Shown: one piece after another, positions 60,268-60,887 of the stretch
How positions within the stretch are numbered: position 1 is the first letter of the stretch
Layout of the letters: every line of letters starts with the position of its first letter
Source of the DNA: Candidatus Moraniibacteriota bacterium
Lineage (GTDB): Bacteria > Patescibacteriota > Minisyncoccia > Moranbacterales > UBA1568
Assembly: GCA_052034975.1 (NCBI GenBank)
Contig: JBPOIA010000003.1
Coordinates: forward strand, 49,251 to 113,250
DNA: 64,000 nucleotides
Direction of reading: 5' to 3'
Notes under the pieces: generated by a model
Databases searched by the model: none
What the model was told of the DNA's origin: nothing
The model's input: the letters and a program-made list of their open reading frames with translations, nothing else
Made by a program: the position numbers and the translations under genes

Positions 60268-60887
60268 ATGAACGAAAGAAAACAGTTGCCGTCCGAGATC
60301 CTCGTTCGTTATGCGCTCAGTATCGGCGCTCTAGAGCTTTTGCCGGAAGGCCGAAAACTGAAGAGCGGACGAATATCGCCGTACTTCTTCAACTCCGGTT
60401 TGTTCAATACCGGTCCGTCCATCTCGGAATTGTCGGAGGCCTACGTCAGGGCGGCGCAGGAGTGGTGTTTTATATGGATTCCGGGATATATGTTGATTAC
60501 GCCTTCAACCGCAAGGAAGCAAAGGATCACGGCGAAGGCGGAATCATTGTCGGCGCATCGCTCCAAGGGAAGAATGTCCTGATTGTCGATGACGTGATGA
60601 CGACAGGGACGTCTTCCGGCGAGGCGGTCGAAATCATCCGAGCGAACGGTGGTACACCGATCGGCTGTGTGATTGCGTTCGATCGCCAAGAGCGCGGGAA
60701 AGAAAGCAATCTGTCGGCCGTGGAGGAGTTCCAAAAAAATTACGGGATTCCGGTAGGGGCCGCCGCAACGCTTGCCGATCTCATTTCGGTATTGAAGAGG
60801 ACTCCGGCCGAGAGCAGTGACGACAACGTCGGCGAAATGCTCGAGAAAATTCTTGAGTACCGCCAACAGTACGGTATCAGTACCTAA
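60268..60887 (+). pseudogene. pyrE: Orotate phosphoribosyltransferase, frameshifted and internally deleted (probable pseudogene)
   Basis: AGGAGG RBS plus ATG at 60268. The N-terminal part ([28 protein letters not shown]) runs in frame 1 to about 60470. The C-terminal part ([35 protein letters not shown]..) runs in frame 0 from about 60462, a -1 switch near GAGTGGTGTTTTATATGG. The roughly 29 aa containing the universal GPAYKGIP segment are missing between DSGI..D and [15 protein letters not shown]. Confidence 0.6.

Follow-up and report, generated by a model that had tools for sequence, protein, structure and literature searches.

Using open reading frame (ORF) maps, profile searches, DNA comparison with a close intact orthologue and a structural model, we conclude with high confidence that the pyrE gene in the window (the whole 64,000-nt stretch of DNA analysed here) is a recently formed pseudogene, brought about by one 70-nt deletion between short direct repeats. 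The ancestral allele survives in a relative whose gene is 95% identical, and it is comparison with this allele that reveals the lesion as a single contiguous gap.

Results

Organization of the pyrE locus

Instead of a single uninterrupted frame of about 210-245 codons, the pyrE span at 60268-60887 on the forward strand holds, according to the ORF list, two overlapping ORFs in different frames. The frame switch lies at 60462|60463, a position that is ambiguous over the 3-nt TGG at 60463-60465 and that falls within a few bases of the switch placed at about 60465-60480 by the first-pass annotation. The span starts ten bases after the pyrF ORF, and its ribosome-binding site is strong, with the Shine-Dalgarno sequence AAGGAGGAGG immediately 5' of the 5' fragment. 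The features of the locus are as follows.

59338..60258, forward strand: pyrF (orotidine-5'-phosphate decarboxylase, long 'sub2' type), intact, 306 aa
60268..60582, forward strand: ORF of 104 aa in frame 1, the PyrE N-terminal part
60268..60462, forward strand: pyrE 5' fragment, codons 1-65 (MNERK...AAQE) in the original frame
60462..60887, forward strand: ORF of 141 aa in frame 0, the PyrE C-terminal part
60463..60471, forward strand: deletion junction and retained repeat copy TGGTGTTTT, from DNA alignment with L127, L128 and L129 (loci of the intact gene, described below)
60465..60887, forward strand: pyrE 3' fragment in the other frame, ending ...QQYGIST with its stop at 60885-60887
60900..60942, forward strand: hairpin (AAAGGGCGCCGAGCGC/GCGCCACGGGCCCTTT) followed by TTTTTCTTTT, from inverted repeat and fold; probable intrinsic terminator of pyrF-pyrE

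Past the junction, the 5' fragment is translated out of frame up to the stop at 60580-60582. The 3' fragment corresponds to codons 90-229 of the intact gene, and from it the gene callers derive a product of 137 aa starting at ATG 60474 (protein P0009, found in both the NCBI and the Logan assemblies, in the former on a contig of 121,978 bp). When compared with the profile TIGR00336, for which the curated NCBIfam cut-off is 106.8 bits, the N-terminal piece matches profile positions 5-49 with 28.8 bits and the C-terminal piece positions 83-172 with 105.8 bits. Against the solved E. coli and Salmonella OPRTases, the two pieces align with approximately residues 24-60 and with residues 92-213, respectively, and the stitched PyrE matches these enzymes with an E value of about 1e-38.

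The window gene descends from the same family as E. coli and Salmonella PyrE (TIGR00336; PDB 1ORO, 1LH0, 1STO), and like them it keeps the orotate-binding hood (LKSGRxSPYFFN; E. coli Lys26/Phe34-35), which stands in invariant columns of the 5' fragment, as well as the flexible catalytic loop and the PRPP-binding motif VLIVDDVxTxGTS, which stand unchanged in the 3' fragment. Unlike them, it has no equivalent of residues S60-A82, is split between two frames and leaves both of its pieces below the NCBIfam PyrE cut-off. The core strand-loop-helix FGPAYKGIP (E. coli 68-76, with Tyr72/Lys73) is not in the window. The first-pass annotation had already reported both that the GPAYKGIP segment was missing and that the PRPP loop and PRPP motif remained; our comparisons with the homologues and with the intact orthologue bear out the loss, and both retained elements are located in the 3' fragment.

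A single 70-nt deletion relative to an intact orthologue

The decisive orthologue was obtained from the 90% protein cluster of the 137-aa product: P0009 shares this cluster with P0121, an intact PyrE of 229 aa, and the cluster consists of these two proteins only. P0121 occurs in GCA_964527355.1 (contig CAZGOB010000003.1; locus L127) and in the Logan assemblies DRR783857 (L128) and DRR783842, and its gene sits directly downstream of pyrF. A PyrF search of genome contigs had found no close intact pyrE, and the search of metagenome contigs gave no match closer than 78%.

Aligned with window positions 60268-60887, the intact orthologue shows 588 identities in 620 positions (94.8% at the DNA level) and exactly one gap, of 70 nt. 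In the alignments with L127, L128 and L129 this gap falls between 60462 and 60463, with perfect flanks and no other indel, such that the intact orthologue of a near relative differs from the window gene by one contiguous gap in all three. The 5' fragment is about 96% identical in DNA to its counterpart in GCA_964527355.1 (L127 8001-8195), and the 3' fragment is 94.5% identical to that of L127.

In the intact gene the deleted 70 nt read TGGGGTTTTCAATGTGATGTCGTCTTCGGACCGGCCTACAAAGGAATCCCGCTCGCTGTGGCTGTCGCGA and comprise codons 66-88 (WGFQCDVVFGPAYKGIPLAVAVA) together with the first base of codon 89, that is, 23 codons plus 1 nt; the sequence GGACCGGCCTACAAAGGAATCCC marks the undeleted allele, in which the 70 nt are present. 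By ungapped alignment the deleted residues are E. coli S60-A82, including F68-G-P-A-Y72-K73-G-I-P76. Because 70 equals 1 modulo 3, a single deletion of this length accounts for the missing segment and for the switch from frame 1 to frame 0 at the same time. The first-pass annotation had listed a -1 shift and missing residues as separate features; the single gap makes them one event. Its figure of about 29 absent residues was right as to the loss itself but not as to its size, which is 23 codons plus 1 nt when measured against the 95%-identical orthologue.

A short direct repeat at the junction

In the intact gene the deleted stretch opens with TGGGGTTTT, and directly after the stretch comes TGGTGTTTT, the two lying exactly 70 nt apart. 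Together they form an imperfect 9-nt direct repeat that matches at 8 of 9 positions, of which the window keeps a single copy, TGGTGTTTT, at 60463-60471. By our own calculation, random sequence would give an 8/9 match at exactly this pair of positions with a probability of about 1e-4. The flanking repeat escaped a repeat search at seed 6, its exact runs being only 3 and 5 nt long.

One deletion between these two short imperfect direct repeats, TGGGGTTTT...TGGTGTTTT, broke pyrE, with replication slippage (slipped-strand mispairing) or microhomology-mediated illegitimate recombination as the likely mechanism. This deletion took codons 66-88 and one further base and put everything after it, two thirds of the gene, into another frame. 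What remains is an N-terminal stub of 65 residues whose tail is read out of frame and, at best, a C-terminal ORF of 137-141 aa that is unanchored. Deletions between short direct repeats are a classical route to bacterial pseudogenes and to genome reduction. The loss in the window resembles these classical cases in that its length equals the repeat spacing, one repeat copy is kept and the repeat matches at 8/9 positions; we find no feature in the window pyrE that sets it apart from them, and it is from this footprint only that slippage or microhomology is proposed.

The deletion is probably not an assembly artefact

If the 70 nt, or a base of the T-run, had been lost in assembly, or if an intact allele were present as a minority, the true genome would still have a working pyrE; we consider this improbable. 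Several circumstances do invite the suspicion: the source is a metagenome-assembled genome that was seen as assemblies only, and the junction lies at a short repeat, beside a run of four T. The first-pass annotation had proposed, as an alternative to decay, that sequencing or assembly went wrong at the T-run GTTTTAT. The T-run adjoins the junction, however, because it is part of the retained repeat copy, and a one-base error there cannot explain the lesion, since the frame so restored would still be without the 23 missing codons. Moreover, a second assembly carries the identical junction: a Logan contig from SRR34217541 equals window positions 58139-64000, with 100% identity over 5862 nt including the junction, although it may share its sequencing run with the deposited assembly and is perhaps not independent of it.

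In de Bruijn assembly, every k-mer across a junction must occur in the reads. A repeat of 9 nt with a mismatch is far below assembler k-mers, so that graph collapse is not expected here. Among the clustered proteins there is no intact allele of the window's own strain, the 90% cluster being made up of P0009 and P0121. Finally, the other large genes of the window are unbroken (ORFs of 816, 830, 819, 631 and 536 aa) and the coding fraction is about 0.94; with genes this long and coding this dense, it does not look like an assembly riddled with indels.

The missing segment is a conserved part of the core fold

OPRTase catalyses the reaction orotate + PRPP -> OMP + PPi, and in the Salmonella enzyme Tyr72 and Lys73 touch the pyrophosphate of PRPP. 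Lys73 is said to be catalytically important, its substitutions reportedly lowering kcat strongly. Our literature search on the role of Lys73/Tyr72 in OPRTase and on orotate use in Patescibacteria found nothing relevant.

A search with the stitched PyrE returned thousands of homologues, of which the closest full-length ones, 220-245 aa long and 60-78% identical, all carry the segment. Conservation was assessed in an alignment of 117 close full-length homologues (205-260 aa). None of the 117 is without the GPxYKG columns, and the G, P, Y, K and G of the segment are each at least 95% conserved. Related genomes encoding a similarly short PyrE in one frame would have argued against decay, as the first-pass annotation pointed out, and among these 117 homologues we find none. 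When mapped onto an AlphaFold2 model of the homologue P0018 (built from a 22-sequence alignment, mean pLDDT 90.5), the deleted part comprises core beta-strand 74-77, the GPAYK loop and most of helix 82-93, a strand-loop-helix that belongs to the core of the type I phosphoribosyltransferase fold. Because the core strand and helix are gone and the C-terminal two thirds are out of frame, we infer a loss of OPRTase activity, with neither piece likely to be able to form the active enzyme. Programmed frameshifting was rejected as well, the conserved core segment being physically absent.

That the shortened pyrE nevertheless works, whether through the C-terminal ORF of 137-141 aa alone or through the two pieces acting as a split phosphoribosyltransferase, is thus very improbable. 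Both pieces are stop-free and well conserved, the orotate-binding stretch, the loop and the PRPP motif are kept, and the gene callers do give a 137-aa product. Against this, all 117 homologues show the missing strand-loop-helix with little or no variation, and it forms part of the core sheet of the fold; no other genome has such a short or split form carrying the 70-nt deletion; and the C-terminal ORF appears to have no evident ribosome-binding site of its own. The conservation, in turn, is explained by recency, with a dN/dS of 0.09 over only about 5% divergence.

The numbers behind this last point are as follows. The window fragments differ from the L127 pyrE by 23 synonymous and 8 non-synonymous changes (dS 0.18, dN 0.017, dN/dS 0.094), and the comparison with L127 reveals no further stops or indels in the window pyrE. 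The substitutions particular to the window's strain are S9, N126, T153, N171, R201, P203 and M214. Of the 50 columns outside the gap that are at least 95% conserved, the window keeps 49 and departs from 1; functional homologues depart from 0.95 of these columns on average. Signs of relaxed selection in the window pyrE, such as extra stops or indels or a raised dN/dS, were not found. We conclude that the inactivation is recent because dN/dS is 0.09, further lesions are absent and 49 of the 50 conserved residues are kept. Nearly everything that separates the window gene from that of L127 has built up under purifying selection, so that the deletion is recent relative to the roughly 5% divergence, and we read the good conservation as a mark of this recency and not as evidence of function.

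The idea of two lesions, in which a small indel shifted the frame and an in-frame deletion arose separately, as in older, progressive decay, can be dismissed almost entirely: the two gaps of 16 and 39 nt (net loss 55 nt) that alignment with the roughly 70%-identical relatives L045, L046 and L008 had suggested are an alignment artefact due to the divergence of these relatives, overturned by the 95%-identical orthologue with its one contiguous 70-nt gap and perfect flanks. The same orthologue overturned a HMMER pairing of the out-of-frame tail with IFGPAYKGIP, likewise an artefact of divergence.

pyrF is intact and mosaic

The neighbouring pyrF had been called intact in the first-pass annotation, and it is: the protein scores 217.6 bits against TIGR02127 (cut-off 110.6) over profile positions 1-260 of 261, and its catalytic motif DAKxxD (DxKxxD) is present as ILDAKSMDIGNT.

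Homology between the window and L127 begins at 59344, ends at about 60940 and is limited to pyrF-pyrE; the genes on either side are not related. Within pyrF (L127 7053-7991), blocks that are 93-100% identical alternate with blocks of 45-60% identity. The synonymous difference relative to the L127 pyrF is 0.07 in 59975-60255, 0.33-0.37 in 59338-59430 and 59602-59800, and saturated (0.74-0.85) in 59431-59600 and 59812-59970. Because the pattern is at silent sites, it indicates that pyrF is probably a recombination mosaic between lineages rather than a gene under uneven protein constraint. By the same comparison, the block made up of the last third of pyrF, the whole of pyrE and the terminator has recent ancestry in common with the L127 lineage. 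We consider chimeric assembly an unlikely cause of the mosaic, as at least four switches within 1 kb would be needed and two assemblers agree.

The cassette of GCA_964527355.1, DRR783857 and DRR783842 is like that of the window in its pyrE (94.8% identical in DNA) and in the 3' third of its pyrF (97-100%), and the window has the same gene order, ribosome-binding site and terminator as GCA_964527355.1. In contrast to the window, the cassette of GCA_964527355.1 has the 70 nt and encodes the 229-aa enzyme. Its flanks are secG and groES, whereas those in the window are tRNA-Glu and an exonuclease gene, and in parts of its pyrF the synonymous differences from the window have reached saturation. From the mosaic structure of pyrF it seems that these episymbiont-like bacteria trade DNA through homologous recombination between lineages that are fairly divergent.

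A separate observation concerns the pyrF of L128 (1798-2703, Logan DRR783857), which has an in-frame deletion of 11 codons in a variable insert region (EEFLY------GEISLYQ) and is otherwise identical to that of L127.

Relatives and pathway context

Nearly all PyrF relatives in the genome and metagenome collections belong to the Patescibacteria (candidate phyla radiation), and pyrF-pyrE pairs are common among them. The best PyrF match, 78% identical, comes from Candidatus Moraniibacteriota Bin_68_2 (L002), to which the JGI contig L047 is identical and which is also the closest relative by synteny. The order of genes that L002 and L047 have in common with the window includes tRNAs, pyrF, a PolB-like exonuclease gene, a polyprenyl synthase and a UPP synthase; between pyrF and the exonuclease gene, at L002 4949-5559 and also in L047, there is no pyrE but a 159-aa ORF without a Pfam match. 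The dN/dS between the window pyrF and that of L002 (L002 4001-4945) is 0.09, from which it follows that pyrF is maintained in both lineages, even though L002 is without an adjacent pyrE. In a further relative, L008 (assembly E14_maxbin.225_sub, 4872-5545), pyrE is split at about codon 150 by a single-base deletion (GGAAC-CCCATTGGC) beside an intact pyrF; this frameshift may mark a genuine pseudogene or may stem from the assembly.

A pyrF-pyrE-pyrD cluster is found in L045 (Logan SRR22388311, 2357-4839), and dihydroorotate, instead of orotate, can therefore serve as the starting point in some related Patescibacteria. In the window itself, Pfam scans of 49 ORFs across the 64 kb detected none of pyrB, pyrC, pyrD and carAB. 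It is possible that a second functional OPRTase lies elsewhere in the genome, beyond the 64-kb window; the organism presumably gets its pyrimidines by salvage or from a partner.

Discussion

Of the two explanations that the first-pass annotation had put forward for the broken pyrE, the decaying pseudogene is the one that our data support: the pseudogene is recent, it stands in a reduced Patescibacteria genome, and an intact orthologue with 94.8% identity differs from it by one 70-nt gap. The loss is ordinary gene decay, that is, reductive evolution in such a genome, and beyond annotation it matters little. The correct annotation is a pyrE pseudogene and not a 137-aa 'phosphoribosyltransferase', and the orotate-to-OMP step should be left out when the metabolism of this genome is reconstructed. 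At the same time, the locus shows clearly how a gene has recently been lost from a reduced candidate-phyla-radiation genome, and a 95%-identical relative still has the ancestral allele.

A more far-reaching reading, which we regard as unlikely, is that pyrF-pyrE forms a small orotate-to-UMP cassette which Patescibacteria lineages swap by recombination and from which pyrE is repeatedly lost, while pyrF stays under purifying selection. This reading draws on three cases, namely the window, the lack of a neighbouring pyrE in L002/L047 and the 1-nt frameshift in L008. Were it true, it would imply an unrecognised source of OMP, such as uptake from a host cell or a non-orthologous OPRTase, or else a second role of the long-type PyrF.

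Genomic surroundings

The window has a G+C content of about 51% and is densely coding, and pyrF-pyrE follows a series of tRNA genes and rpmG that is arranged like an operon. Rfam matches near the locus are tRNAs only. The probable terminator hairpin at 60900..60942 marks the end of the block common with L127, homology to which ceases at about 60937-60950; a promoter/terminator pattern scan did not list this hairpin 3' of pyrE.

Right after this terminator, and at the end of the common block, stands a second, long hairpin at 60946-61072, with 20-nt arms that are 85% complementary and 87 nt between them. The surrounding region of 211 nt folds at -73 kcal/mol (z = -5.2). The long hairpin occurs once in the window and matches no Rfam family, and among the fetched loci it was found only in the same-strain contig.

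Elsewhere in the window, positions 38408-47789 hold a run of large ORFs (394, 815, 829 and 818 aa) with few or no Pfam matches, among which the 829-aa protein shows weak matches to coupling-protein ATPases of the TrwB/TraG-D/HerA type. Type IV secretion or pilus-related modules are often seen in candidate-phyla-radiation genomes, and this stretch may be one such module.
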